A stretch of DNA of 63,022 bases, counting the filler, from Dimargaris cristalligena (lineage: Eukaryota): the NCBI GenBank assembly GCA_003614675.1. It is 12 parts of 12 records of this genome, joined end to end, with 100 filler letters (N's around TTAATTAATTAA, not from the genome) between each part and the next. Parts side by side here need not be neighbours in the genome. Positions count along the whole stretch, not along the records: positions 5,311 to 10,505 come from ML003672.1; 11 more parts are not named here. The stretch is one strand, 5' to 3'. Below are positions 2,048-52,668 of this stretch, one piece after another. Within the stretch, counting starts at the first letter, position 1. Every line of letters starts with the position of its first letter. Position numbers and translations under genes: made by a program. The notes under the pieces are model-generated. The model saw only the letters and a list, made by a program, of their open reading frames with translations. It made no database searches and was not told where the DNA came from.

Positions 2048-3109
2048 TTAGTTCGACAGGACCACGCGATACCGCACCTTGCCGTCACGAACCCGCTGGA
2101 TACCCTCGTTGCACTGATCCATTGGCAGGGTTTCAATCCACGGCCGGACATTGTGCTTGGCCGCGAAATCGAGCGTAGCCCGGACTTCCTTGATACCACC
2201 AATCAACGAGCCCGCGATTCCCACGTTGTTGGCCAAGAAAGAGAAAGGCTTAAGCTTCAGCTCAGTTTCGGGAATGGCTAACAAAACAATCAGCCCGTAG
2301 ACATCCATAAAACTAATCAACTGGGCCCAGTCGGTGTGGGGCGAGTTGGAGGTGACAATCAAGTAGTCGAGGGATTGGGTGGCAGCCTTGCTTTGCTCGG
2401 CGTCGCGTAGGTTAACAACCTGGGTAGCACCGAGTTTGAAACATTCCTCGCGCTTGGCTTCGGAAGAGGTGAAGCTGGTAACATGGGCACCCAAAGCCTT
2501 GGCGAATTGGACGGCCAGATGGCCGAGACCACCGATGCCAACGACTCCCACTCGATCACCCGCCTTCATCTTGTAGTGCAGCATGGGGGTGAATACGGTG
2601 GTACCAGCACACATGAGGGGAGCGGCTTCGCGGGGGTCAATGGCAGCGGGGATATTGAAAGCGTAGTTGGCGTCGACCCGGACGGCATCGGCGTAGCCAC
2701 CCTGGGATAGTTCACCATCGGGGTAAGGCTTGTTATAGGTAAACACTGAGTGGGGGCAGTGCGCATCGTGTCCCCGCTGGCAGTTCTTGCAGTCCGGCTT
2801 CTGGCAAGCGAAGGCCTGGGCGCCTACACCAACCAAATCGCCGACGGCGTGGCCCTGCACCTCGGCACCCTTGGCCACCACACGGCCGATAATTTCGTGA
2901 CCGACAATCACGGGATACTGAGTGGGACCCCAGCCGCTGTCGATGGTGTGGATGTCCGAACCACAAACACCGCAGTGATCAATCTTGATTTCAATGTCGT
3001 TGGGACCCAGGGGACGGGGCTTGTATTGCCAGGGCACCAGTGGCTGGTCCTTGCCCATAGCGGCGTAGCCGCTGATCATGCGAGATTCGGAGGAAGTGGA
3101 AGTGGTCAT
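2048..3109 (-). CDS. Zn-dependent NADPH alcohol dehydrogenase (MDR; ADH6/cinnamyl-alcohol dehydrogenase type), 353 aa
   Basis: Motifs CGSD, GHE, structural Zn Cys cluster, AAPLMCAG, GIGGLG Rossmann and C-terminal VRYRVVL. First ATG is at 3109; the ORF track start at 3193 is a non-ATG codon. Confidence 0.95.
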   Translation of the reverse strand: MTTSTSSESRMISGYAAMGKDQPLVPWQYKPRPLGPNDIEIKIDHCGVCGSDIHTIDSGWGPTQYPVIVGHEIIGRVVAKGAEVQGHAVGDLVGVGAQAFACQKPDCKNCQRGHDAHCPHSVFTYNKPYPDGELSQGGYADAVRVDANYAFNIPAAIDPREAAPLMCAGTTVFTPMLHYKMKAGDRVGVVGIGGLGHLAVQFAKALGAHVTSFTSSEAKREECFKLGATQVVNLRDAEQSKAATQSLDYLIVTSNSPHTDWAQLISFMDVYGLIVLLAIPETELKLKPFSFLANNVGIAGSLIGGIKEVRATLDFAAKHNVRPWIETLPMDQCNEGIQRVRDGKVRYRVVLSN

Positions 3110-5210
3110 GTTATAAGGATTATGCGGGGGTGATAATAAAGTAGAGGGATACTCGAATCTAGACGAGAGTGGATGAATGGTATAATAGAACACTACCTAA
3201 GGACTGATATGGTAGGTGGGGTTGGGTGAGGGACACCAGCCTATTTATATTGAAGTGGTCGGCCCAATTCGACGAGCCTACGTTTGGTTGTTCTGTATCT
3301 AAAGAAGCAACTAGAAGTATCCATGGGCTACTTTTGCTACAAGAGTACGAGGATCCAGCTTGCCTATACCATACTGGCCAATCGACGTTTCTGTCGAATT
3401 ATGGAGAGGTACGGCCTCCTCATGAAACTGGTTGAAAACACTAGTTTATCAACCAAGAGATGTCGCCACACTGGGATTGGCTCGTTCATAGTGGCCAATG
3501 GGGGATTTGGTTGATCTACTATCAGCTCATCGAAGAGAAACAGGTGATACTGGATATTTAAGACTCTGGTCGGTACGGTTTATATGTGAGAAGGGGATAG
3601 ATTAGTTGCTGAATTTATTACTGGTGTATGGCAGGATATTTAGCAGCCGATGAACTTCTATGAAACCAGATCCTCCATTAAAATCCCGTGCGGCCAAGAA
3701 AATCATAATAATTAATATGCAACTGGTTTACGCCACATCGGTCGACATAATTGATTCAATATTCGCAAGTGCGTGTCCATCCAGTTGGCGTAATCGGGAC
3801 ATGTGCGATTACTCTGCAGGCACTGTCGGCGCTGATACCTTTCGGCTATTTCTCGTATATCTCTAACATTACCTTATAGGAGAGAGAGACCCACGTTACC
3901 CATATTTTGTTCATGGAGAACGGGTATTATTATTAGTCAGCTACCGGGGGTTTCATAGTAGATAAGTTGACCGACTGGACTGAAGTGACGACACGTCCAC
4001 GCTCGATCGTCTAATATTATTTCCGTATAGTCTTCCATTATATGAGTACTACAAAACCCCATAATTCTCCGAGTATGAGACTGGTACCCTACACTATAGA
4101 GGATTTTAAACGGCCACAGTAAGGTGTAGTACTCAATTATTACCTTAGAAGGAATATGGCGCTAAAATGAGAGAGATTTTTAGTTCCAGCCTATCAGCTC
4201 CATCAGATATGAATCACAACTTATCCCAGGGAAAAGATAGTACTTAGTGAGCAAACCCATGTGTATCATTTTTCCCATACTACCTTTTAAATTACGTATA
4301 AATGGCCATTTCACTGTTTCCATTGTTGGTCTCTATCCTTCAAGCCTGGACCTTGGTTAAAATCAAATTTAATGTATGCATTTAGATAAGGTTAAGGGCA
4401 GCTACATTGTCCCATTTCCTTTACTGTCGAATAGTACAAGTCCTGTTGCGCCACAATTAATCGGACCCGGTAAAATACTATTGTCGTCATTTACGGCTAA
4501 ACGTTTTGGTATTCTTAATTTACTGGCCATCCAACTTTAATAACGGCGCCCAGATAGATCAGCCATTTTAATTGGTTCTAAAGTGTTGCCTTTGGGGCTA
4601 ACATGAATGAGTGGAAGAGGTTGAAGGTATTATTTCATCAAACCGCTGGTGCCTATGGGGAAGGGGCTTACTAATCTAAACTTCGGTCGAGAATTATCCC
4701 ATAGTCATATAATTTCCTGTGGGGGGGGTATACTGGCCGCAATTTCGGTCTGCTGAATTTCGGCAGTAGGACATGCTACATGCAGGTCCTGGAAAATATC
4801 GCGCGGCTAATTGGTTGGGGTCATAGACTGCTAATTACCCATCTATCTCCTCCTCTACGCATCTTTGACGTTTTACAACATTATCTACCCCCCCACCTAC
4901 AGGCAACTGTGAATATATTTGCTACCCGTACAGCGTATGTATCGCCCATCTATGGTCCCGCCTGCTCGATAGAAATTGCACCAATACTGCTGGGGGTTAC
5001 GTCTACCTTATAACCGCGCTCAGTTGGTTTTGCTCAATGCGAAAAGCTGAATTGCCTACATGCGTAGACCGGGAGTCTGGAGTGGCGAGCCATCATTGGG
5101 GCGAGATAATTCGTTTTTAAAAAACTCATTATGTTAATAGAGGGGAAAGAAAAATTTTTCCGTAAAAATATTACTTTCCCCGAAGTAGAAAGGAAAAATT
5201 TCCATGCGAA

Positions 5211-5310
5211 NNNNNNNNNNNNNNNNNNNNNNNNNNNNNNNNNNNNNNNNNNNNTTAATTAATTAANNNNNNNNNNNNNNNNNNNNNNNNNNNNNNNNNN
5301 NNNNNNNNNN
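5211..5310. other. Artificial contig linker (N44-TTAATTAATTAA-N44), first of 11
   Basis: Identical 100-bp spacer at 5211, 10506, 15781, 21055, 26314, 31568, 36821, 42072, 47320, 52556 and 57791. It has stops in all six frames. Intervening segment lengths fall monotonically from 5210 to 5132 bp. Confidence 0.99.
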
Positions 5311-5402
5311 CAATATTACTAGTTAAAAATACATTTCCCATATATTTTCCCATACACGTATAATGTAAGCCCTTATATAGCTGGGCCGAATTTCACCCAT
5401 AT
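5311..5402 (-). mobile_element. ~144-bp MITE-like repeat, truncated by contig start
   Basis: Reverse complement matches 14848-14925 (ATATGGGTGAAATTCGGCCCAGC...TTTTTAACTAGTAATATT). Confidence 0.8.
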
Positions 5403-6365
5403 GAAGTATTTTATTCAGACAAACGGTGACAGTTGGGCGTCAGGGGCGGTATATTTTATTCCTCTGCGATGAGGTGTTGTTCTTGTGCTGTTGGGATAGG
5501 GTCGACTTATTCTGTCGGGGGGAACAAACGCGCCACACCATAGTCCCGTGGGTTTCCTTCACTTGGGTGGGGAGTACTGTGGTGTGAGCGGGGATCAGCC
5601 CCTCGTTGATGAGTGGCGGCAGCCTCCCTTGATTGTCATATCACCCCTATGGTCTATTCTACCATATCGCCGATCATGTTGGATCGGATCGGTAAATATC
5701 CGTATTAGTTGTCCCTTATTTCCGACCCGTTGAAACTTAATGTCGAGTGTTAAGTAGAAGGGATCAGAGTAGTAAGGGATTGAGCCCAGCCAGTTATCCA
5801 ACTAGGTTAGAGAATGACTAATGGTGCGTCAGGGCCAATTTTTATGGATGAACACGTATCATGGGAGTTGGAGCAAAGGCAACTCAAATTCGATTGACGA
5901 GATCCACCGGAGCATCCTCCAAATAGCTAATTTAGATGCACACTATCCCCTCATGTAGAGCGGAAGGCGGACTATATAGGTGGAAGAAGACGAGATTATC
6001 CAAAGTATCTCTCTTCCCTTTTTCCACTTTTAGGTAGGGGTGCTCAGTACCCTTATTTATCGTGTTTAGCGTTGATCACTTGATATATCAAGGAATTGCG
6101 TTCAAGACAGTTGGCAATTCGTAAGGTTTTAACCCTTTTCGAACCTGGCTGTACGCGTCCCCTGTACATAATTTGATCATTGCTAATTTAGCTTGAAATC
6201 AGGAAGGGGGGATGGAGAGATAGAGGTAATCGTCAATGCAATCGGCATGTTGATTTGCTAGGCCATACGACGCTACTTAAGGCTCATCGAATCTGACCGG
6301 GTCAGATTATTATTAATAGCAGTTTCCTCCTTGACTATACCATCCAACAAACGAGTTAGAACATA

Positions 6366-6414
6366 CCACGCAGAGAATGTATATCCAACGTTAACATCCC
6401 AGGAAATATATAAA
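6366..6414 (+). promoter_or_regulatory. Conserved CCACGCAGAGAATGT motif plus TATATAAA box upstream of peptide gene A
   Basis: TATATAAA at 6407-6414, 197 bp before the ATG. Same arrangement in copy B. Confidence 0.55.
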
Positions 6415-6603
6415 CCGCTCTCCCTTTCCTCTGGTTTTTTACAGTATCTCGTTTTTTATTGTAGCCATTCCATCCTCCGCTTGACTTGTATTTCCCTGCC
6501 TCCTTCACTTTCACTAATTGACTAGATCGTTTTTCTACAATTACAATACTCCTTCCCTCCCAATACCACTTGGTCAAATCACCGTAAAGCTAAATACTCC
6601 ATT

Positions 6604-7014
6604 ATGAAGTGCCTTACCTCCCTCCTTCTGATTACAGCTCTTGTTGCCACCATGGGGATTGCCACCGCGACGATACCTAAAACCCCCCGTGCTGTCACGC
6701 CGATGGACAAGGGCGCACTCGGTCGGCTTTACACCCAATCCCCGGTTGCGTCGCAGAATTCGTTAAACCATCGGGGATATCCCAACTACACCCCTGAGCA
6801 CCGTCGCCGCGCGGCCTTCTCAGCCATCCCCTGCGAGTCTCTGGTTAAGCGGACACCTATTCCAATGCCTAACCCCAAACCATCCGATAGCAACTCTGCT
6901 GCTTTGACCCTCAGCAAAGTGCCGAATTCCTCAGGCGGTACAATTAATCGCCATTATCCGGTGGAATTCGGGAGCACGAATACCAAAGATATAAAATTTG
7001 CCCTTATTTTCTGA
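6604..7014 (+). CDS. Secreted prepropeptide, paralog A (136 aa)
   Basis: Signal peptide MKCLTSLLLITALVATMGIATA; RRR and KR basic sites; KR followed by TP-IP-MP-NP-KP. 77/105 N-terminal residues are identical to paralog B. Confidence 0.8.
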   Translation: MKCLTSLLLITALVATMGIATATIPKTPRAVTPMDKGALGRLYTQSPVASQNSLNHRGYPNYTPEHRRRAAFSAIPCESLVKRTPIPMPNPKPSDSNSAALTLSKVPNSSGGTINRHYPVEFGSTNTKDIKFALIF

Positions 7015-8759
7015 ATAACAGTAATCATTCACTAATTCTTCAGCAAACATATTTACACGCCCCTAATTATCTAATTTATTGTGGTTAGCCACTTGCACAA
7101 TGTACCCTTGCGTCCCTGCTCACTTAATAAATATATACCATTTATCCGTTCTTGGAGAATCCTCATCCGGACATGTCTCGACAATAAATACCATCTATGC
7201 TACAATAACTGTACATAGAGTATAGTCAACTATTTCAATAACAGTGGCATTGCTTGACCATTGGGTGAAATACCCCCCCCCCTCCTATTACATTGATGGC
7301 TTTGGTCGTTTAAGAATTACTTGAAAACTCAAATTATTAGTAAAATATCTGTCAAATGGGAATATTAGAGAGGATATATTAGCCACTTGAACTATACAAA
7401 GTTATTATTTATACTAAATCATACCTGGCGGCCGCTGGCTTCTTCACGGATCCTGATTAGTTGAGTGCTCGCTTGGGGAGAGTGATTGCCACTATTTGGG
7501 AGAATCGGAATGCATTCGGGTAAATAAATATGCCACAGCTGATGCTACCGGTTATTGTTTATCTATTGGTAGGGGATATTTAATAGACACTATTGCCACT
7601 TTATTAAACTCCATTTTTTTAAAGAAAAATTAACGTTAATAAAAACAATTGGCTAGGTAATACGGTTGACTAAAATGGGGCGGCTTTACATAAAATGTAG
7701 TATAAAACCCCGCCCACACTTGTCGAATTTGAAATTCGAGAAGCCTCAAGAGTCTGACTGAACTACCTACTATGTGGGTTTGGCTATAAAATCAACCGTA
7801 GGCTCAATATATTGGGAAAATATAATACTTGTCTTACTAATCAGACGCATTGGAATCGTTTAATACGAACATCCCCCTCCCATCTTTTAAGGCACCAAAA
7901 AACAAATGGAAGGTCCATCTAGGCTATTTAACGAACGATCCATCTCATAAGACCAATACGACTAGTAAAGAAAAATTATCACATTCTTTTATCTACGCAC
8001 ATCATTGCGATCGATATTAGGCTGGGCCAAGTCTCTCCCGTATAGCCTATTCAAATATTACACTGATCATGTTGGATTTAATTGGCAAGTATCTGTATTA
8101 GTTAGCTTCTATTCCTGACCGATTGGGCTGTAGAGTTGGGTATCGGGCAGGAGGAATCAGAGTAGTAGGGAGTTTATCCTAGTCGGCTTGCCACCAAGAC
8201 AAAGTATGGTTAATGGGGGAGGGGGTTTAGGGCAAATGGCTGTGGGTGATCAAGCATCTTGATTAAAGCAGAGATGGCCCAAATGCGATTAATGTGGTGC
8301 GTCGGATTATCCTCCAAAGAACCAAGCTGGATACACATTCTCACCTCGTGTAGCGCGGACATCGGCCGATATAGGCGAGGGCAGGCAAGATTACCCAAAC
8401 CATTTGCCCCCCCCCCTTTTCGCCGCTTTTAGGTAAGGGTGCTCAGTTCCATTGTTTACCGTGATAAGCATCGATCACCCGCTATTACAAAGAGTTAAGC
8501 CCAATTCAACTGGCAATTCCTAAGGCCGTCAACCTCTTCGAAACCGGCTCTAAACGTCCCCTGTACATTAGCTGGGCACCGGCAATTTGGCTGGGAAGCA
8601 GAGCTCGAGGGGTGGAGGCAAGCGTTAATATAGCTATCTGGACGATTTACTCTTGCATGAAACATTCTTTATGGCTCATTGAATCCAAGCATATTAAACC
8701 ATTTGTAATAGTACTTTTCATGTTGTCTATGCCAGCATACAAATGAAGGTTAGATTGGT

Positions 8760-8808
8760 CCACGCAGAGAATGTGTATCCTACTTTTACATCATTGGGAA
8801 TATATAAA
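8760..8808 (+). promoter_or_regulatory. Conserved CCACGCAGAGAATGT motif plus TATATAAA box upstream of peptide gene B
   Basis: TATATAAA at 8801-8808, 197 bp before the ATG. Spacing identical to copy A. Confidence 0.55.
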
Positions 8809-8997
8809 GCAGTATTCTTTTCCTCTTGTTTTTTACAATATACCACATTTTATTCTAGCCATTACATCCTTCGCTTGACTATTATTTCCCCGCACCTTTT
8901 ACATTTACAAATAGACTGGACCTATTCACTCCATTTACATTAACCCTTCAGTCCAAATACCACTCAGCCTAATTACTATAGAGTTTCATACTCAACC

Positions 8998-9414
8998 ATG
9001 AAGTGGCTCATCTCCCTCCTTCTGACCACAGCTCTTGTTGCCATCATGGGAATACACGCCGCGGCGATACCAGAAACCCCCCGTGCTGTCACACCAATGG
9101 CCAAGGGCGCACTTGGTATGCTTCACACTAAACCCCCAGTTGCGTCGCTGGATTTGTTAAACCGTCGGGAATATCCCAACTACACCCCTGAGCACCGTCG
9201 TCGTACGGCCCACTCTGAGATGCCTTACAAGTCTTTGGTCAAGCGGGAACCTATCCCAATGCCTAACCCCAAACCATTTGATAGCAACTCTGTTGCTTTG
9301 ACCCCCAGTAAATCCCGATATGCCCGAGCAAGTAGATCCAAAATCAATATGCCTGCACAAATCGGTAGCAAATATCCTGAGCTATACAATTTATTTATTT
9401 TTCATTTTGAGTAA
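8998..9414 (+). CDS. Secreted prepropeptide, paralog B (138 aa)
   Basis: Signal peptide; RR, RRR and KR sites; KR followed by EP-IP-MP-NP-KP. ORF conserved with paralog A. Confidence 0.8.
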   Translation: MKWLISLLLTTALVAIMGIHAAAIPETPRAVTPMAKGALGMLHTKPPVASLDLLNRREYPNYTPEHRRRTAHSEMPYKSLVKREPIPMPNPKPFDSNSVALTPSKSRYARASRSKINMPAQIGSKYPELYNLFIFHFE

Positions 9415-10329
9415 CGGTAATAGTTAACCGATTAGTCCACCATCGCGATTTTAAGACAATATCTATGTAGTTAATAAATATACTTTTTCGGTGCTCACCG
9501 AGTCCTATTTCGGACATATTCCGACAATAAATACCACCTAAACAACATTCACTGCACAGCGTATATGGTATAGTATTTCAATAAAAGTGAAATAGCTTGA
9601 TTGTAGGGTGAGGTGCCTCCTACTTGCATTGATAGGCTTCATCGGTTACCCATTGCTCGACTACCCGAAGCATCTGTAAAATATTTCCTTAATAGGAATA
9701 TTAGAGGACGTATAAGGGCCGGCTGGTACTGCTGGGTTTCTGGGCATCCATAAGGGGTGATATTTTATCTAGGCTATTGCAGGCTTATCTAACTATCTAT
9801 TTTTTTAACAAAAATATAAGACGATAGAAATATGGGGTCGGGAATTTTGGATGACTAAAAGGACATTCGGCTCAGCCCAGTTTCACTAAATTAACTATAA
9901 TGCGGTGGCTTCATCTCCAAGGTGGTATAAAAACTCCACTCGACATTGTCGAATCTGGAGTTTTAGAAGCCTCGAGAATCCGACTAGACCGCTTACTAGG
10001 TAGGGTTGGCTATAAAATCGGCTGTAGACATAGTGTACTGCAAAAAAATTGATACTTGGCTTACTAATCAGGTTCGTCGAAATCATTAAATACGAGCACC
10101 CCCATATGGCTGGTGGTTAGGCTGGCTTTTTAGCCCTGTCATTCCGAGAAAAAAATAACCTATAAAGTAACACCAGCCTTTTACAGCCAAAAAGGTATTA
10201 TGAAACATTGGTGTGGCGGGTTTCCTCATAGCGACAAGCACTTTTTTCTTCTATTTATGCCTACATTTTCTATATATATTACAGTCTAACCGAGTTCCTC
10301 GTACAACCGTTATTTTTAGTCTAGCAACC

Positions 10330-10505
10330 ATGGGCGACCTTATTGATTGGCATTTACTTTCGGCCTCGGGCAAATCGCAAGAGCTGCCCCCACTTCTGAA
10401 GGAGCATGTCTTACACGAACCCTTAAACTGGCTTTATTCAGGGGAGTACCTCCAGCTACTCCAATCCCCCCTTGGTCAGCGGATCCTCGGAACGACTACT
10501 CCGGC
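10330..10505 (+). CDS. 5' fragment of a protein gene truncated by contig end (possibly TTC27/Emw1-like N-terminus)
   Basis: ACCATGG start context, open to the contig end. SGEYLQLLQSP is only weakly reminiscent of TTC27-family N-termini. Confidence 0.4.
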
Positions 10506-11595
10506 NNNNNNNNNNNNNNNNNNNNNNNNNNNNNNNNNNNNNNNNNNNNTTAATTAATTAANNNNNNNNNNNNNNNNNNNNNNNNNNNNNNNNNNNNNNN
10601 NNNNNTATGTTTAGTATACAAAAAAAATCAGAGGTAGCGGTATAATAGAAATATTCCGGGCTGACCTTTAGTAGAATGAGCCTGAAGTCGGCGACTAGTA
10701 TCAAGAAACGGGCGGGGGTTCCTCCCTGACTAGTCTTAGTTGGAAACCAGTAGAGCTGGGGTCATACTGCGGATGTACTGAAAAAAAGAGAGATGCCTGT
10801 ATTTTTTTGGTTTAGATTTTGGCTGGTGGGATACATACCGTTTCAGTTAATTAAGCCACTTCGTTCCCTTGTTGATAACTGCACAGTTCCAGCGACAGTA
10901 ACTGCCCATGCTGCTTATACGCAAGAGCTACAACGCTAAGCACACCATTTGGCTTCAAAATGCCGAGCATGCAGTGCAGCCCCAAAAGGAAGTTCAAACA
11001 CGCCGGTATGGCTTAAATGTACTGAGGCATGGCCAAATACTGAATTTGGAATTAGAGGACATTAGAGTGGCGCAGTTGCCCGCCGAAATAAAAACAAACG
11101 TACTTTATTTATATTTATATTTATACTTCGGCATAAGAATCCATCGGCGGAGTCAATGGATGTGGTGTTTTACTGCTACCCAATGGCAACCGTTAGAAGG
11201 AGTCGATCACCTTGAGACTAAGCGGGGTCACCTGACCCCCCAGTGAGAATGGGCCACCCAGGAGGCAGCGAACAATTACTAGACTAGTCGGCCATTCAGA
11301 CTAATCTAGGTTACTGGAAACAACACACGCCGTCCTGGGGTTTCTATATTTGAATAATTAACTAGCTATTTATATTCAACCCGGCCGATAATGTCGGGAA
11401 TAATAATGGTCCCCCACAGCGTGAGCGGAGCACAGTGTGCACATGGTTATAAGTCCTAAACCATGAATAAGGCCGGGTATCTCACGAGCCCAAGGACGAG
11501 GAGACCCTAAGTAGTACGCAGGCCATCACAAGCAAATACAGAGAGTGGGTGGTGGTAGAAAGACCGCCGTCACCAAAATCTACCAGCCACTTCTA

Positions 11596-27397: not shown

Positions 27398-30300
27398 ATG
27401 GTAGGTTTGATTCGAAGCCACCCTGATTGGCAATATGCCTGAGGCGCAGCCCATTGAAAATCCGACCAGAGAACACTACGATTGCCTCCACTCGACCCGT
27501 ACTCCTCACTCTTTCTCCTTGTGCACCTCGGTAACCTGTACTCTGATCTATTACTACTCTTTACAAACTGACCATGACAGGACCGCAAACGCCAACGCGA
27601 TGAAGGCCCCGCAACCCCGAACCAACCCCCGCCGAGCTCGCCTCTGGCGTCGTCCATCCCCCCTTCCAGTCCCCCTGCCCCATTCTCAGACGATGTCGAC
27701 GATATCCGGCAGGACGCGCAGCTTCTTGATGAAGACGAGGATATCATGCTACTCGACGATGAAGAGGACAACGGCGAGGACCTCTTTGGTCCCGACATGG
27801 ACAAGTAAGTACAGGCCCTTCATTCCGACAATAATTATATTAGCAACCAATAGTTGGTACTGGCATACGTACTCTTAATCATGGATGTACCTTTACGTAG
27901 TATCGTCTATACCTTCAGAGACGGCATGTTTTTCGCCTACGGTGATCCTACTCTTAGCATATATATGTTGAGGCATCCCTAATGTTTATTCCAAGTACTT
28001 GGACCATATATTGCTGATTTTCGGACATTTCATAGTGACTATGGCCAAAACGTCCGCCTAGATCAGTATGACGTCGACGATATCGATGATACTGACTATG
28101 GGAACTACGACCCTGCCCAGCGTGCTGCGGTGGAGGCCAAACTTAATCGCCGTGATGCGGAAGAGGCCCGACTCAACCGGGTTCCCGCTGCGTTTCTCGA
28201 CGATTACGGTAAGTTTTGGAATTAATTCACCGTATTAATGATTCTTATCCTGACCATATTTGACGAGACTGGCATATACCGGAGTTGATTATGCCCATAC
28301 TAATAACTAATCTCTACCCATATCATCCCGCAACCCATGTATATGGTCAATGCAATAATCTAAAATAGACGGCGAAGAGCAGGCCCCTGCTGGTGAACAA
28401 CGTCGCCGCCGTCGCCGAGGCCCTGAACTCCAGTTTGGAATGGGAATGGGAATAGAAGAAGAGGAAAGAGTAAGTATATGTTTATTTTTACCGACCACCT
28501 TGATACTCGATGACAGCATCTATAGCGAAACCCCGTACCTTATTAGCAGTAGTGTATCATTGGTTATATTGACTCAGCCCTGAAACGCGATATTAATCAC
28601 TTTTTGATTCTACTGTACAACCTTTGCTCTATGTATTAGGAAATCACCCTTGACGATCTGAAAGACATGAAAGGCCGGTCTATTGTGGAGTTTATTTCGA
28701 TGCCGGGTCCCCGCCACACCATTCAACGCGAATTCCGCCACTTCTTGCTCTCGTATGTGGACGACAAGGGTTCTTCGGTGTATGGTGAGCGTATCCGCTA
28801 TCTGGGTGAAGTCAACGCGGAGAGTCTTGAAATAAGTTACACCCATTTAGCCGACTCCAAGCCCATCCTGGCCTACTTCCTGGCGAACTCCCCCGCCGAA
28901 ATGCTCCGCCTAATGGACACCGTGGCTTTCGAGGTGGTATTGACGATGTTTCCGGACTACGACCGCATCCACGCCGAGATCCACGTGCGCATCTCCGACC
29001 TCCCTTCCATTTCCAGCCTGCGTGACCTACGCCAGAGCCAGTTAAACTGCCTGGTGCGAATCTACGGTGTAGTTTCCCGGCGCACGGGGGTATTCCCCCA
29101 ACTTAAATATGTCAAGTACGATTGTATGAAGTGCGGTGTTGTACTTGGCCCCTTCTACCAGGACACCCAGAATGAAATCAAGATCGGTTCCTGCTACAAC
29201 TGCCAGTCCAAGGGCCCCTTTTCCATCAATTCTCAGCAAACTGTTTACCGTAACTACCAAAAACTCACTCTCCAGGAATCCCCGGGCACTGTACCGGCGG
29301 GTCGCCTGCCTCGCCACCGCGACATTATTTTGCTTTGGGACATGATCGATTCGGCCAAGCCTGGCGAAGAAATTGAGGTGACGGGTATTTACCGCAACAA
29401 CTTTGACGCCTCCCTGAACACGAAGAATGGATTCCCCGTCTTCGCCACGGTGATTGAAGCCAACCACGTGAGCAAGAAGGAGGATGAATTCGCGGTGTTC
29501 CGTTTGACCGAGGACGACCAACAGATGATTCGGGATTTAGCCCGTGATGAGCGTATCGGCAAGCGCATTGTGAAGAGCATCGCCCCCTCGATCTACGGGC
29601 ACGAAAATATCAAGATGGCCCTGGCCCTAAGCATGTTCGGTGGGGTGCCCAAGGATGTGCGCGGTAAGCTGCGGCTGCGGGGGGATATCAATGTGCTGAT
29701 GCTGGGGGACCCCGGTACCGCCAAATCCCAGTTGCTCAAGTACGTCGAAAAGACGGCCCACCGGGCGGTATTTACAACCGGCCAGGGTGCTTCGGCGGTC
29801 GGACTGACAGCCTCCGTCCGTAAGGATCCCGTCACCCGCGAATGGACTTTGGAAGGTGGGGCCCTGGTGTTGGCCGATAAGGGCGTGTGCCTCATTGACG
29901 AATTCGACAAGATGAATGACTCCGACCGTACGTCCATCCATGAGGCAATGGAGCAGCAAAGTATCTCCATCTCCAAGGCCGGTATCGTCACTTCGCTCCA
30001 GGCCCGCTGTGCGGTAATCGCCGCTGCCAATCCCATCCGGGGTAAATACAACCCCACCATCCCCTTTTCCCAGAACGTGGAACTGACAGAACCCATTCTT
30101 TCCCGGTTCGACGCCCTTTGCGTGGTGCGGGATACGGTGGATCCGGTACGGGATGAACTCTTGGCTAAATTTGTGGTTCAGAGCCATATTCGCTCCCACC
30201 CGGAATACCTGCTGGAACTTAAGGCCCAGGCGCAGGCCCAGCAAATGGCCGCCGAAAACGGGGAGGACGCTGCCATGATCGAAGAGGGTCTGGAGCTCAG

Positions 30301-45066: not shown

Positions 45067-46292
45067 AGATGGGGATTCATTGTGCAGTTGCAGTTACTAC
45101 CATTTAGCATTACTATGGCCCCCCAGGTCTTTTCATGCATTATGAAAGTGGCTATCAAATCATTACATACCTGGGGGATTATCCTATCCTATTACCTGGA
45201 TGACATTGCCATCATATCACCCACTCACTCATAGGCCCAGGCTGATCTGGCTATAGTACTTGATCATCTCTAAATACTGAGATTTCCCATTAACTGGAAG
45301 AAGTCAGTCCTTACTCCAGCCTAAGTCATGGAATTTCTGGGTATGACCATCAATACCCAGCAAATAAAGGTTATATTACCTCTAAGGAAATGCAAATTGA
45401 TTCAGTGGGTATGTAGGTACTTGAAAACTAAATCACTACTAGCCCGGAAGGTGGCCTTAGTCCTGGGAACATTGATGTTAACCCTGCCAGCTATTCCCAA
45501 TGGATTAATCTATCTGTGGGAATTACAACAATATCTCATCAGGCAGAACAAAACCTGGAAAGAATTAATCACTCTTACCCTAGTGGCAATCCAGGAACTC
45601 GACTGGTGGTATCACCAGGCCCAGCTCAACATGGGGAAGCCAGTACATCTCCCCAATACAACCACTATGGCCATCTATACCAATGTATTGGACACTGGGT
45701 ATAGAATAGTAGTCCCAGAATTACATCAAGCAGGGCTTTAGAACCCAGAGGAACAGCTGATGTCCAGCAACTGGAAGGAACTGTGGGTAGCCTATTTGGC
45801 CTTAATCCAGTTACCCCCATAGGTCCACTATCAGGCAGTACTATTGAAAACTGACAATACTACTGTCCTGAAATATATTAACTACCAGGGTGGGACCCGG
45901 GTCCCAGCCCTCCAATCTCTAGCCCTCAAAATTAACAACAAACTGGTGTACAAAAATTTAACATTAATGGTGACCCATATTCTGGGGATAATCAACCCCG
46001 AGGCTGATCAATTGAGTCATCAGGTACCAGCATACCATGAAATGCAGCTACCCCACTGGGTATTCCATCCACTAAACCAGTGGTGGGGTCCATTCAACAT
46101 CAACCTGTTTGCCAGTCCCATCAACCACCAGTTGACCAGGTACTACCACTTATACCACACGGATGACAGTTTACCAAAGGACGTGTACCAGTACCCTTGG
46201 CCTCAGGAAAATGGTTATATATTTCTACCCTGGAACCAGGTCCACTGAGTAATTAGTCAGGTCTACCAGGAAAAGACAACCCTAGTCCTCAT
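45067..46292 (+). pseudogene. Degenerate DIRS1-type pol: RT - RNase H - Dam-like methyltransferase domain
   Basis: LPFSITMAPQVF, YLDD (45193-45204), INWKKSVLTP, EFLG, ELDWW, IYTNVLDTG (from TDAS), NWKEL, TDNTTVLKYINYQGGT, HILGIINPEADQLS, WGPFNINLFAS, YIFLPW. In-frame stops. Confidence 0.92.
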
Positions 46293-48008: not shown

Positions 48009-49946
48009 ATGTCCAAGTCCAACTCCAAGTCCACCAAGAGGTCCATTGTCAAGAAGAAGCAAGTATCCGAGGCTCAAGTAACCAAACTCAGACTCATCAA
48101 GGCCTGGGTCATAGAGAATAAGCCTGACATTATGTGTCTGAGGTGCAATACCAAGGGGCATATCACTGACCATGGGGGAAACCGCTTTAACTGTACCAGC
48201 TGTAATCAGCGCTACAAGAAGGTTGACCTGTGTGCAGCTCGCAACCCCGAGTTGTTACAGGAGCTGGAGGCCAAGTACCCTGAGACTAGAACTACCACCA
48301 AACAGCCTCCCCCTGCCCAGCCCGCCCCTGTCATTGCCTTATCCACTGCAACTAGCCTTGGAGAAGCCAGTAATATAGAGGTTGTATCAGCTGGAACCAT
48401 CTCCACTGATGTTATTACCCCTGCCACCCAGTCCCCTGAGCCTCCCACCATGACCACCTCCATTACCCAGGGCAAGCGTCCCCACCTGGCCTCTCCTGTG
48501 CATGCCAGCAAGAGGCATTGTTCCATGCTTAGTCGTCCAGCCATTCCCAACAAGGCAACTTATGCGGAGGTAGTTAGACGTCTAGGGCTAAAGGGCAAGG
48601 ACCAGCAGAAGTGTGGCCTGTTGGCCTTGCAGAGGCTGTATGCCAAACCCAAGCCACCCCAGTTTGTCTATGTCCGTGGCATCTCCCGCATGCGAATCCG
48701 TGAACTGAAGGATGTCCTCCACTCCTTAGGGTTCTATTTACCATCTGTCCTCAATATCAGCTTCCTGGGGACTGAGACAGTTGAGTTCCTGGTGGCTGCA
48801 TCCTATGCAGTTATCTTTAAGGGGAAGATCAAGGATGTTGAGCTTACTCTACTGCCCAACTTCTCCACTACTGGTACTATGGACCCTGATGCCTCCCCTG
48901 CTATGAGAGATAGGGTCCAGAAGGCCTTCATCAAGCGATCCCTCAAGATAATTGCTGGTACCAAGAACCCCCTTGTAGCCCAGACCTTCCGAGACATCCT
49001 GGTTGAGAAGAAGCTGTACCAGTTCAGTGCCCCCCCTCTCCTATCTGCCCATTCTATCCCATCAGCAAGTTCCTCTGCCCAGCCCCCCAAGTCCCCTGTC
49101 CCCCCAGCCCAGCCTTTCAGGTTCCCTCCACTGGCTCTTAACCAGCCCCACCAGGATACTGGCATCTCCCTGCAGTGTAGCATACATACCACCATCCCTT
49201 GTACATGTAGCCTGCTCTCCCAGCTACCCAATCCTCCTTCTGTCACTGTTCAAGAGCCTCAGGAGGCCATCAACATCACCAGCAGTTCTACAGATTCACC
49301 CTGCCCTTCCCCCCAGCTTCCCAGTTCCCCCAATATGTGCACCAGCCCCCACTCTGACCAACTTGATCTCTCAGAACAGCCAGTCAGCCCCCTACTCCAT
49401 GCCACTCCAAGTGTCCTTGGATCAAACCCAAATCTCCATGCTAGTCCAGTAGTGTCAGTTGCAAGTTCCCACCATGGGCCTACTCCAAGTCCTGGACTAC
49501 CTACCTCCGACTCAGACTTGCTCCACCTCCTCGTGCACCCAAGTTCCCCAGGAGTACCTACCCCCCAGTCACTCCTTACCCAGGCATCCACACCCCCTCT
49601 CCCCTGGATCATTGAGACACCCTCACCTATTTTAACTCGTGACTACATGAGTAACCCCACCAATACATCCCCCTCTCCCAATCCCATGAGCCCTACCCAG
49701 CACCCATATCTTCCCCAGCAGACATGGAATCTTTGGGACAAGGACCAGCATTACTTTCTGACCCTCACCTCTGATGATGTTGAGAGAAGTCATATTCTCT
49801 TACGGAATGCTGCTACCCCTGATGGCCCACCTGTCCGTACTGTCTCTCAAATGATGGCTGACTTGGACAGACGTGAGGCTGAGGCTGAAAGAGAGTACAA
49901 CCGGTACCTGCTTAGCCAGTATGATGCCCCCCATGACCTCCAATGA
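48009..49946 (+). CDS. Non-LTR retrotransposon ORF1 (645 aa)
   Basis: Directly upstream of APE-RT. N-terminal CLRC-x15-CTSC, a TYAEVV motif, RRM-like FVYVRGI...NISFLG..TVEFLV and a long P/S-rich tail. Confidence 0.85.
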   Translation: MSKSNSKSTKRSIVKKKQVSEAQVTKLRLIKAWVIENKPDIMCLRCNTKGHITDHGGNRFNCTSCNQRYKKVDLCAARNPELLQELEAKYPETRTTTKQPPPAQPAPVIALSTATSLGEASNIEVVSAGTISTDVITPATQSPEPPTMTTSITQGKRPHLASPVHASKRHCSMLSRPAIPNKATYAEVVRRLGLKGKDQQKCGLLALQRLYAKPKPPQFVYVRGISRMRIRELKDVLHSLGFYLPSVLNISFLGTETVEFLVAASYAVIFKGKIKDVELTLLPNFSTTGTMDPDASPAMRDRVQKAFIKRSLKIIAGTKNPLVAQTFRDILVEKKLYQFSAPPLLSAHSIPSASSSAQPPKSPVPPAQPFRFPPLALNQPHQDTGISLQCSIHTTIPCTCSLLSQLPNPPSVTVQEPQEAINITSSSTDSPCPSPQLPSSPNMCTSPHSDQLDLSEQPVSPLLHATPSVLGSNPNLHASPVVSVASSHHGPTPSPGLPTSDSDLLHLLVHPSSPGVPTPQSLLTQASTPPLPWIIETPSPILTRDYMSNPTNTSPSPNPMSPTQHPYLPQQTWNLWDKDQHYFLTLTSDDVERSHILLRNAATPDGPPVRTVSQMMADLDRREAEAEREYNRYLLSQYDAPHDLQ

Positions 49947-52555
49947 TTCCCCCCAACCTGTCCATTGCCTACTTCAATGCCCGAGGCCTGCCCTACTACC
50001 AACTTGAGGCATTCATTCAGTACTATCCCACCCGGTACCACATCATCTTCATTGCAGAAACCTGGCACTGTGACCGTGAGGCTGTCCTCCAACACCCCTG
50101 GACAGTCTGCTATCCCACCTATGACCCCTCCTCTGTCCCCACAGTTGGCCGGCTCCCCCATGGCATTCTTTGTATTGCTCCTCCAGTCTTCCATTCTCAT
50201 ATTCAAATCCTGGCTTTTACACCCTTTACCATCTCTGCCCTTGTCTTTGGCCAGCCCATCCATGCAGCCTACTTCCCCCCCTCCATGACTACTGAGAAGG
50301 TGCAGTCTCTATTAGCTATGCCCAGGGGCTGCACCTGCTTACTGGGGGACCTTAATGTTTCAATAAAGCCTTCCAAGTCTGGCTGGGCTCCCCCTGCCCG
50401 TGCTGAAGTTCTCTCGGCTGCCCTCTCCCGTGAGCACTTACGTTGGAAGGCCCCTCCTCCTCCCCACATCTACCACCTTGACCATGCCTTTGTCCGGGCT
50501 GATCTCTTAGTCCAGGCCCAGGTACACCTTGAGGAATGCCAGGTTCCCTCTGACCACCCTCTGCTCAGTATCAAGCTCCCTACCAAGTCCCCCATATCCC
50601 AACCACCTGGCTCTCTCCGGTTCCATATCCACCGGCTCCAACAACCAATCTACCATCAGGAATTTAGAGCAGCATACAAGGTCCTGTGTCCCACCATCTC
50701 TGAGGTCATGCAGAAGGCCCACCAGGCTATTAAACACAGTGGTCTTGTGACATTATCTGAGATTATTAACTTCTTGGACTCTGTCATAGTGGAGGCCATT
50801 CTGGCTGCTGCTTCTAGTAGTATTGGGGAGTATGATGCTGGTAAGGTGCGTCCTCAGCCTGACCGGTCAATTGAACACATGGTCAAGGCAGGGACTGCTG
50901 TAGATGCCATCCGGCTGATGAAGTCCCAGCAACGGGGTATTACCCAGGCCCCTCTTACCTCACGGGGTGACCTATCAACAGAGGAGGATGTTATGGCCTT
51001 CTTCAGTGAGACATTTGCTGCTCCCAATGAGCTAGCCTTTCCCCATAATCTCCACCTAACTAGTACTGACCCATTGGGTATCCATGTCACAGCTAAGCTC
51101 ATCCGGCAGCTAGTCCAGGAGTATCCTAAGCATAAGGCATGTGGTAGTGATGCCATTCATACCCGAATGCTTTATACTCTGCTTAAGGGTCCCTTCCCCC
51201 ATCACCTAGCTGACTTATTTAATCTCTGCCTTAGGACTGGCTTTACCCCTGCTCGGTGGAATGAGTCTATCATCAACCCCATAGCCAAGGATCCCAAGGC
51301 CAAGCACATTAATGAGTTCCGGCCCATTGCCCTGACAGTCATCTTTCGGCGGTTATTTGAGAAGCTCCTTCTCCCAGCTCTTAAGAATCTCCCCCTGTCT
51401 AAGTTCCAGGCTGGTTTCCGGAACAGGCAAAGCACTCTAGGCCATGTGTTAGTCTCCCATGACACAGCTTCCCGGCCCTTATACCATGCCTACCTGGACC
51501 TTAAGGCAGCATATGACACAGTACCTATTGAGGGAATGTTATCCAAGCTAGCTGGGAAGGGGTGCCCCAGTAGTCTATACTCTCTAGTAGTCTCCCTATT
51601 TACCAACTGCCAGTCCAGGGTGGTAGTTAATGGTCAACTAACACCCTCCTTCAATAGGCATAGAGGATTGTTCCAGGGGTCTCTGCTCTCCCCCACCTTA
51701 TTCAATGTCTTCATTGATGACCTACCAGACAGGCTCCCTATACCTGGTAGGACGGGGGTTCCTCCTATTCTTATGTTTGCAGATGACTTGAAGCTACAGT
51801 ATTCATCAGCTGAGCAGCTCTCTTCTGCATTGGATTGCTGCCACCAGTGGGCTGAGGCTAATGGTATGCAGTTCAATCCAGCCAAGTGTGGTGTCCAATT
51901 CCCAGTAGGGGTACCCGACCCCAAGCTCTCTTTGGGCCCAGTAGTTCTTCCAATTACTCCTACCTACAAGTACCTGGGCTTCCCCCATACTGGCCAGGGA
52001 GTGGACTGGGCTGCCCATCTTCAGAGCAATCTGGCAAAGGCTCAGGCTACCTTCCGGGCCATCAGGTACTCTTCAGTCCATTGGGGACCTGTTATCCGGC
52101 TACATGTCCTCAAGCTGATTATTATGCCCCAGTTGGAGTATGGCCTGGCTCTGGTTATGTATGCACGGAGGTTCAACTCAGCTATTGACCTCTTACCTGC
52201 TACCCGGGAAGTTACCAGTCTTATTCAGTGGGCCATAGGTAGCAGTAGTAAGGGAAGTGTTGCTCATGCCTTGACTGGTATTTCCAAGCTCCCTGACCGT
52301 CTATACCAGCTCCAAGTCAGCTTGCACCAGCACCTTAAGAACATGCCCTCGTATTCCCCCACTCACCAGCTACTCAAGGTTCTTAATATCTCCAGGCAGA
52401 AGGGTTCTCTTCTCCGGTCAGCCATGTCTCATAGAGTCCCTAATAGACTACCAGCTCTGCCTTCTCCTCACCAGCAGATGCAGGAGTATCTCTATACCCG
52501 GATAGACTCAGGTATTCTTAGCCAGCGGATTCACAAGATGGCCCGTGTTCAAAGG
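49943..52555 (+). CDS. Non-LTR retrotransposon ORF2: APE endonuclease + reverse transcriptase, 3'-truncated
   Basis: APE motifs FNARGL, IAETW, GDLN, LDH, SDH; RT motifs FRPIAL, QAGFR, DLKAAYD, GLFQGSLLSP, FADD, YKYLG. Uninterrupted to the contig end. Confidence 0.96.
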
Positions 52556-52668
52556 NNNNNNNNNNNNNNNNNNNNNNNNNNNNNNNNNNNNNNNNNNNNT
52601 TAATTAATTAANNNNNNNNNNNNNNNNNNNNNNNNNNNNNNNNNNNNNNNNNNNNTAAACATCCCACC

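Follow-up and report, generated by a model that had tools for sequence, protein, structure and literature searches.

Two genes, hereafter A and B, lie in tandem on the plus strand of a 63,022-nucleotide window of DNA from the fungus Dimargaris cristalligena (the whole stretch analysed here, filler included; assembly GCA_003614675.1). They encode paralogous proteins of 136 and 138 residues, which align by BLASTP without gaps at 80/124 identities (65%, E = 1e-52). Each carries a signal-peptide-like N terminus, conserved clusters of basic residues, a candidate kexin site (L-V-K-R) with a run of five X-Pro dipeptides directly behind it, and a C-terminal tail. Judged from sequence searches, they belong to a small family of genes that has turned up to date in D. 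cristalligena alone. The conservation of these elements suggests, with what we take to be about an even chance of being right, that the genes encode secreted propeptides processed by kexin at several sites. The C-terminal peptide that had been proposed as the mature core is, by every measure applied, the least constrained part of the protein.

D. cristalligena is a host-dependent mycoparasite of the Dimargaritales, Kickxellomycotina (PMC9866270); its hosts are Mucorales. A single-sequence search of 5.8 billion proteins returned three matches, a profile search of 5.8 billion proteins restricted to near lengths returned four, and an exhaustive phmmer search of 1.84 billion representatives also returned four. 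One of the latter (P0005, a 2,321-residue repeat protein, E = 2.4e-5) was judged a spurious, low-complexity match and was excluded from alignments and counts. A profile search among the proteins of 243-2000 residues in the 5.8 billion database gave no match, which is weak evidence. The family comprises four loci, all from D. cristalligena or encoded in the window: gene A (database model P0003), gene B (P0001), a partial third locus (P0004, 78 residues), located in this assembly on a contig of 1,892 bp, and a member from the other sequenced D. cristalligena strain (P0002). The closest database proteins are the D. cristalligena entries H4R33_001487, BJ085DRAFT_32461 and H4R33_007139. Family size and taxonomic range as given here rest on annotated proteins, and small open reading frames (ORFs) are often missed by annotation. 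An earlier note on this DNA had not recognised the family, and our searches agree: Pfam holds no family for either paralogue, a profile search of the PDB brought up nothing beyond a chance match (E = 0.5), and the ESM Atlas yielded neither a feature match of at least 0.8 nor a structural match with a template modelling (TM) score above 0.30. In the available text of the literature on D. cristalligena and on Kex2/Ste13-type processing, the family is undescribed. P0002, for its part, looks mosaic: its residues 1-15 are those of gene B, residues 23-55 are nearer to B, and over PCESLVKRTPIPMP it agrees with gene A. Paralogue recombination or retained ancestral states could explain this pattern.

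Basic sites and the X-Pro cassette

The N termini of both paralogues carry Lys2, a 12-residue window with a Kyte-Doolittle hydropathy of 2.48 and small residues at -3/-1 (ATA/T in A, AAA/I in B), and AlphaFold2 places a helix over residues 2-20. By the same heuristic (Lys2, a hydrophobic core of 2.4-2.5 and small residues at -3/-1), all three full-length members of the family would have a signal peptide. Little else in the chain is modelled as ordered. AlphaFold2, run on the four-sequence alignment, gave a mean predicted local distance difference test score (pLDDT) of 57 and a predicted TM score of 0.17, and the only other helix comprises the four residues 65-68. Residues 102-136 score below 50, the segment behind the KR site scores 40-45 with no secondary structure, and the pro-region ahead of that site is likewise predicted to be disordered. 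For this protein the ESM Atlas offers a model with a pLDDT of 0.48. On these predictions, the best description of the protein is a disordered chain with a signal peptide at its head. Within either paralogue, no 3-mer or 4-mer occurs twice, and BLASTP against itself gives no match off the diagonal.

The earlier note had read both genes as signal peptide, pro-region, LVKR, exactly five X-Pro dipeptides and a tail of 43 (A) or 45 (B) residues ending in KFALIF and NLFIFHFE, respectively, and this layout was recovered in full, with TPIPMPNPKP as the dipeptide run in A and EPIPMPNPKP in B. As a description, its contrast between a single core and repeated cores stands as well. Across the family, the KR pair and the leucine at P4 are invariant (4/4), and the X-Pro run begins exactly at P1' in every member. 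The run comprises 5, 5, 4 and 5 dipeptides, with proline kept in 19/20 cells and just two of the five X columns invariant. Two conserved basic sites had been overlooked: RRR at 67-69, found in all four members, and RR at 56-57, found in three, and between them lies the best-conserved block of the protein.

Conservation along the chain, taken as mean pairwise identity over the four family sequences, is complete (100%) at RRR 67-69 and at KR 82-83. It stands at 81% over block 58-66, (G/E)Y(P/H)NY(T/I)PEH, at 77% in the signal peptide and at 73% in the X-Pro run, and falls to 55% in the N-terminal pro-piece, 53% in the spacer 70-81, 35% over tail residues 94-104 and 16% from residue 105 to the end.

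Five consecutive X-Pro dipeptides exceed chance: translating the window in six frames yields three occurrences, compared with 0.1 for each shuffle of matched composition. Two of these are genes A and B and the third is unrelated. The latter, RPSPLPVPLP at 27651-27680 (+), lies in a 155-residue ORF (27411-27878) without a Pfam match.

The Kex2 motif has arginine at P1, lysine or arginine at P2 and preferably leucine at P4, and the pro-domains that Kex2 removes are typically disordered (PMC8528282). The signature of STE13 consists of XA/XP repeats directly behind a Kex2 site (PMC6339444; PMC9769878), and peptidomics has shown the removal of such repeats in Pichia, with the same inferred for basidiomycetes (PMC9769878). 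At the level of sequence, the cassette matches this published Kex2 motif followed by the STE13 signature, in agreement with the parallel drawn in the earlier note. Indirect support for the existence of kexin substrates in D. cristalligena comes from Table S1 of PMC7329392, in which 11 Kex2-processed repeat proteins (KEPs) are listed for GCA_003614675.1. Pfam scans of the window ORFs found no kexin gene in the window; the species proteome was not searched.

Reading frame, gene models and genomic setting

Codons 1-104 are most likely coding, to judge from their composition and pattern of change. Between the paralogues they show 83% nucleotide identity overall (range 80-87%) and no indels, compared with about 55-78% over 960 bp upstream and 57-71% downstream, and an indel-free reading frame is common to all four loci. 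Their GC content is 0.54-0.57 against 0.38-0.41 in the flanks, and GC at third codon positions (GC3) is 0.56-0.62, with values of 0.61-0.72 in five measured housekeeping ORFs of the window. The 20 synonymous and 32 nonsynonymous differences (14/17/21 by codon position) correspond to a dS of 0.31 and a ratio of nonsynonymous to synonymous change (omega) of 0.50 by the Nei-Gojobori method, which denotes weak purifying selection over this stretch. Gene conversion as a cause of the higher 5' identity was rejected, as the proportion of synonymous differences (pS) over these codons, 0.25 (dS 0.31), is near the divergence of the flanks.

Both genes are read from the first ATG of their open frame as single exons, and the deposited or predicted models depart from these plain ORFs. 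Model P0003 starts gene A at Met17 and thereby loses the signal peptide, and model P0001 (H4R33_001487) replaces the tail of gene B by 13 other residues through an intron, the donor of which (9308) falls exactly where conservation stops and the acceptor side of which resumes at 9636. This second exon and its intron were rejected: copy A has neither GT nor AG at the equivalent sites. Peptide comparison of the two 3' flanks found no conserved downstream exon, only short matches in several frames and on both strands, some with stops. The single-exon ORFs were therefore retained, and two gene models are corrected, one without a signal peptide and one with an intron unsupported by the paralogue.

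The genes lie within a tandem duplication, detected by blastn of the window against itself, whose period is 2,394 bp (Table 1). The principal match, 5641-6918 against 8034-9312, has 70.8% nucleotide identity, and further 3' blocks pair 7124-7370 with 9471-9706 and 7666-7876 with 9891-10103. A TATA box, TATATAAA, precedes the ATG by exactly 197 nt in both copies.

Table 1. Features of the two duplicated loci, in window coordinates.
Feature	Position	Strand	Basis or remark
Duplication unit A (promoter, gene A, 3' flank)	5641..8033	+	window self-blastn
TATATAAA, gene A	6407..6414	+	in block conserved between copies
Gene A, single-exon ORF, 136 aa + stop	6604..7014	+	first ATG of open frame; A at -3
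Gene A signal-peptide-like segment, codons 1-22	6604..6669	+	AlphaFold2 helix, residue heuristics
Gene A GYPNYTPEH (codons 58-66) + RRR (67-69)	6775..6810	+	block 81% mean pairwise identity; RRR 4/4
Gene A L-V-K-R (codons 80-83), candidate kexin site	6841..6852	+	sequence motif, family alignment
Gene A TPIPMPNPKP, five X-Pro (codons 84-93)	6853..6882	+	six-frame pattern scan
Gene A tail, 43 aa	6883..7011	+	first ~11 aa weakly conserved, remainder unconstrained
AATAAA, candidate polyadenylation signal, gene A	7183..7188	+	3' block conserved between copies
Duplication unit B (promoter, gene B, 3' flank)	8034..10103	+	end is last aligned block
TATATAAA, gene B	8801..8808	+	
Gene B, single-exon ORF, 138 aa + stop	8998..9414	+	ORF reading, BLASTP to A
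Gene B RR (56-57), EYPNYTPEH (58-66), RRR (67-69)	9163..9204	+	family alignment
Gene B L-V-K-R (80-83) + EPIPMPNPKP (84-93)	9235..9276	+	sequence motif
Gene B tail, 45 aa	9277..9411	+	sequence reading
GT..AG intron implied by model P0001	9308..9635	+	P0001 sequence mapped to window; not conserved in copy A
AATAAA, gene B	9526..9531	+	conserved 3' block; inside intron of model P0001

Both genes are located in AT-rich DNA (3200-11500, some 8.4 kb, GC 0.41-0.45) that extends from an alcohol dehydrogenase (ADH) gene (2048-3196) to a GNAT gene (11596-12840), and a Pfam scan matched no other ORF there; the neighbouring housekeeping genes have a GC content of 0.55-0.60. The scan covered 41 window ORFs, namely 39 distinct stop-to-stop ORFs (of 80 listed, at least 100 residues long) and the two paralogues. 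Almost all of the 39 ORFs left out overlap a longer one. Recognised among the window ORFs were an MCM helicase, a Rom2-like RhoGEF with a CNH domain, a LYC1-like GNAT, HemD and a zinc ADH, and an Rfam scan of the window for structured RNA gave no match at gathering score.

Paired runs of 44 N, 12 bases apart, recur about every 5,250 bases along the window (5211-5310, 10506-10605, 15781-15880 and onward; 11 pairs, 968 N), for which deliberate masking or an artefact of the construction of the window looks likelier than assembly gaps. One pair lies just past duplication unit B, the far end of which cannot be read through. Further along, 48009-52603 (+) looks like a non-LTR (long terminal repeat), LINE-like retrotransposon, with a 645-residue ORF without a Pfam match followed by an overlapping 888-residue ORF that has an RVT_1 domain and a weak endonuclease/exonuclease/phosphatase domain below the Pfam cut-off. 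A 141-residue ORF at 45823-46248 (+) has sub-threshold Pfam matches to PCIF1_WW and Dam (N6-adenine methyltransferase-like; E = 1e-3 to 5e-3) and may be one exon of a larger gene.

A possible maturation pathway and its alternatives

If the precursors are processed at several sites, as we suppose with roughly balanced confidence, maturation might take the following course. The signal peptide would be removed at about residue 22/23 on entry into the endoplasmic reticulum, and a kexin (Kex2-type convertase) of the late Golgi would cut after RR/HR 56-57, after RRR 67-69 and after L-V-K-R 80-83. A Kex1-type carboxypeptidase could then trim the leftover C-terminal basic residues, and a dipeptidyl aminopeptidase of the Ste13/DPP-IV type could strip the four or five X-Pro dipeptides stepwise, halting at S/F-D-S-N-S (S/F94). 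The expected products would be an N-terminal pro-piece, the nonapeptide (G/E)Y(P/H)NY(T/I)PEH, a 12-mer ending in S/T-L-V and a C-terminal peptide of about 40-45 residues. Selection acts on residues 1-104, which take in the signal peptide, basic sites, nonapeptide, X-Pro run and start of the tail, and the last 32 or so residues drift freely. We therefore take what is maintained to be the cassette together with the nonapeptide, or else the N-terminal part of the last fragment. The conservation profile looks more like that of a hormone-type precursor, with a conserved peptide between basic sites, than like that of a toxin-type precursor.

Several observations weigh against multi-site processing. 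Copy A has HR, not RR, at positions 56-57, the purifying selection over codons 1-104 is weak, the conservation statistics are thin with four sequences, and the gene models match neither the plain ORFs nor each other. Runs of (X-Pro)n also act as rigid spacers in proteins that are not processed. Finally, three of the four members carry an N-x-T sequon (N-Y-T) within the nonapeptide, the conservation of which could reflect a glycosylated pro-region and not a bioactive peptide.

A more specific version of this proposal holds that the nonapeptide excised between RR and RRR, or a trimmed fragment from behind the X-Pro run, serves as a diffusible signal or host-directed factor of a haustorial mycoparasite. 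We regard this as distinctly doubtful. If true, no ribosomal peptide signal or effector system would have been described before it in the Kickxellomycotina/Zoopagomycota, and its product would arise through a multi-site Kex2/Kex1/Ste13 cassette out of a precursor that lacks repeats and is invisible to repeat-based screens.

The earlier note had placed the product elsewhere, in the C-terminal peptide. In that case the tail would be the single bioactive core, a toxin, effector or signal freed at LVKR and trimmed by a Ste13-type enzyme, the conserved N-terminal 83 residues would be mere leader, and the variability of the tail would be that of an arms-race product. Amphibian antimicrobial peptides and cone-snail toxins come from precursors of this kind, in which the prepro part is conserved and the mature peptide hypervariable. 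The conserved cassette does abut the tail directly, in all three members with an intact C terminus the tail is open and of much the same length (43, 45 and 40 residues), the genes sit in a stretch with no other Pfam-recognisable ORF, and host-dependent mycoparasitism makes fast-evolving secreted factors plausible (PMC9866270). We nevertheless consider a tail core unlikely. Over the 20 alignable tail codons (105-124) omega is 1.0, not above 1 (pS 0.48, proportion of nonsynonymous differences 0.48), with the differences spread evenly across codon positions (11/9/9). The nucleotide identity of the tails (about 61% by MAFFT) is at the level of the flanking noncoding DNA, and their GC and GC3 (the latter 0.44 in A, 0.29 in B) are flank-like. 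The tails have no charge, isoelectric point (8.2, 9.7, 5.4, 5.8) or hydrophobic pattern in common and no cysteine framework, AlphaFold2 models no helix in them, and the hydrophobic ending is 4-5 residues long and absent from P0002.

The open frame of the tails, which continues for 32-34 more codons, was considered as evidence of translation and found uninformative. When codon positions are drawn at random from the noncoding DNA nearby, 15.5% are followed by at least 32 open codons, and under simulated neutral change the tails remain open in 23-58% of trials. Taken with the family identity of 16% and the pLDDT below 50 given above, these results do not sustain the tail as a selected core, and none of the evidence favours a hypervariable toxin or antimicrobial product over relaxed constraint.

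Alternatively, the chain may not be cut at all. The products would then be disordered secreted or wall-associated proteins in which (X-Pro)5 forms a stiff, polyproline-like spacer and the Arg/Lys clusters serve as binding patches, which we think rather improbable. Disorder is predicted throughout, proline makes up 10-12% of the residues, the X-Pro run is the best-modelled segment outside the signal peptide (mean pLDDT 78 at 81-90), and motif matches by themselves do not demonstrate cleavage. A general role as spacer and binding patch fits less well with the basic residues being the most conserved positions of the family, with the preferred leucine at P4 of the KR site, and with an X-Pro run that begins exactly at P1' in each of the four members. 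An anchored form finds no support at the C terminus either. Glycosylphosphatidylinositol (GPI) attachment or tail anchoring calls for a C-terminal hydrophobic stretch of roughly at least 15 residues, and the longest hydrophobic run within the last 25 residues is five in A and four in B; a GPI anchor was rejected on this ground.

Two further possibilities lie well below these. That the genes are not functional at all, but ORFs that arose by chance or are decaying within duplicated noncoding DNA, known only from ab initio calls, is very unlikely: the homologues are confined to one species, constraint is weak and the gene models are inconsistent, but codons 1-104 have a coding-like composition that drops sharply at both ends, an identity 15 points above that of the flanks, an indel-free frame at four loci with conserved signal peptide and motifs, and a TATA box equidistant from the ATG in both copies. 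Least probable, to the point that we would be surprised by it, is a peptide made on the ribosome and modified after translation, with a Tyr-rich YPNYTPEH core cross-linked or otherwise altered by tailoring enzymes as in dikaritins; the best-conserved non-basic block does have two invariant tyrosines between kexin-type sites, and D. cristalligena is reported to have, for Zoopagomycota, a relatively rich predicted secondary metabolism (PMC9866270), but the core is present once only, without the repeats of dikaritin-type precursors, no DUF3328 (UstYa), tyrosinase, P450 or other tailoring family was matched by Pfam in the 41 window ORFs, and the one sub-threshold methyltransferase-like match lies 36 kb away.

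Relation to known secreted precursors

The KEPs and alpha-factor-type precursors (PMC6339444; PMC9769878; PMC7329392) are likewise read as precursors of short, secreted linear peptides, and a signal peptide at the N terminus, which they have, is also predicted by heuristic for the Dimargaris proteins. They share no sequence similarity with the Dimargaris family and differ from it in several respects. KEPs contain repeated, near-identical cores, of which the Dimargaris paralogues have none; their spacers are mostly Glu/Asp-Ala, whereas the Dimargaris run is all X-Pro with X mostly non-acidic; and behind the cassette they carry a conserved peptide of 9-24 residues in place of an unconstrained 40-45. 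The screens of PMC7329392 and PMC6339444 require repeats, and D. cristalligena is absent from the latter. Since the family has no repeats, such screens could not have detected it.

The effectors of the Kex2-processed pro-domain (K2PP) class, such as SnTox3 and ToxA (PMC8528282), resemble the Dimargaris proteins in their single-copy layout, in a disordered N-terminal pro-domain that ends in L-x-K-R, and in being secreted by a fungus that lives on another organism. In K2PP effectors, however, the site lies in the first half of the protein and is followed by a folded domain, whereas here it lies at residue 83 of 136, outside the K2PP range, and what follows is predicted to be disordered (pLDDT below 50) and is the least conserved part. 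The available text of PMC8528282 describes no X-Pro run in these effectors.

The XPR2 and LIP2 leaders of Yarrowia lipolytica also combine an X-Ala/X-Pro run and a KR site in one secretory leader, the run being removed by a dipeptidyl aminopeptidase and KR being cut by kexin (PMC9252082). Their cargo is a folded enzyme, unlike that of the Dimargaris family. In the XPR2 leader, moreover, the dipeptide run sits between the signal peptide and the pro-region, whereas in Dimargaris it follows KR. Stepwise removal of X-Pro/X-Ala also activates promelittin and the antimicrobial precursors of insects and amphibians, which combine a conserved prepro part with a variable mature peptide. These are animal proteins unrelated in sequence, and their mature peptides are cationic and amphipathic, unlike the Dimargaris tails.

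Confirmation of processing would document peptide maturation by a kexin and a dipeptidyl aminopeptidase in an early-diverging mycoparasitic lineage, which the literature consulted shows only for yeast and Pichia and infers for basidiomycetes (PMC9769878). It would also mean that non-repetitive precursors escape repeat-based KEP surveys of the kind reported in PMC6339444 and PMC7329392. Set beside these systems, the maturation design is already known and ordinary-looking; what is new is an orphan family in an under-studied lineage.

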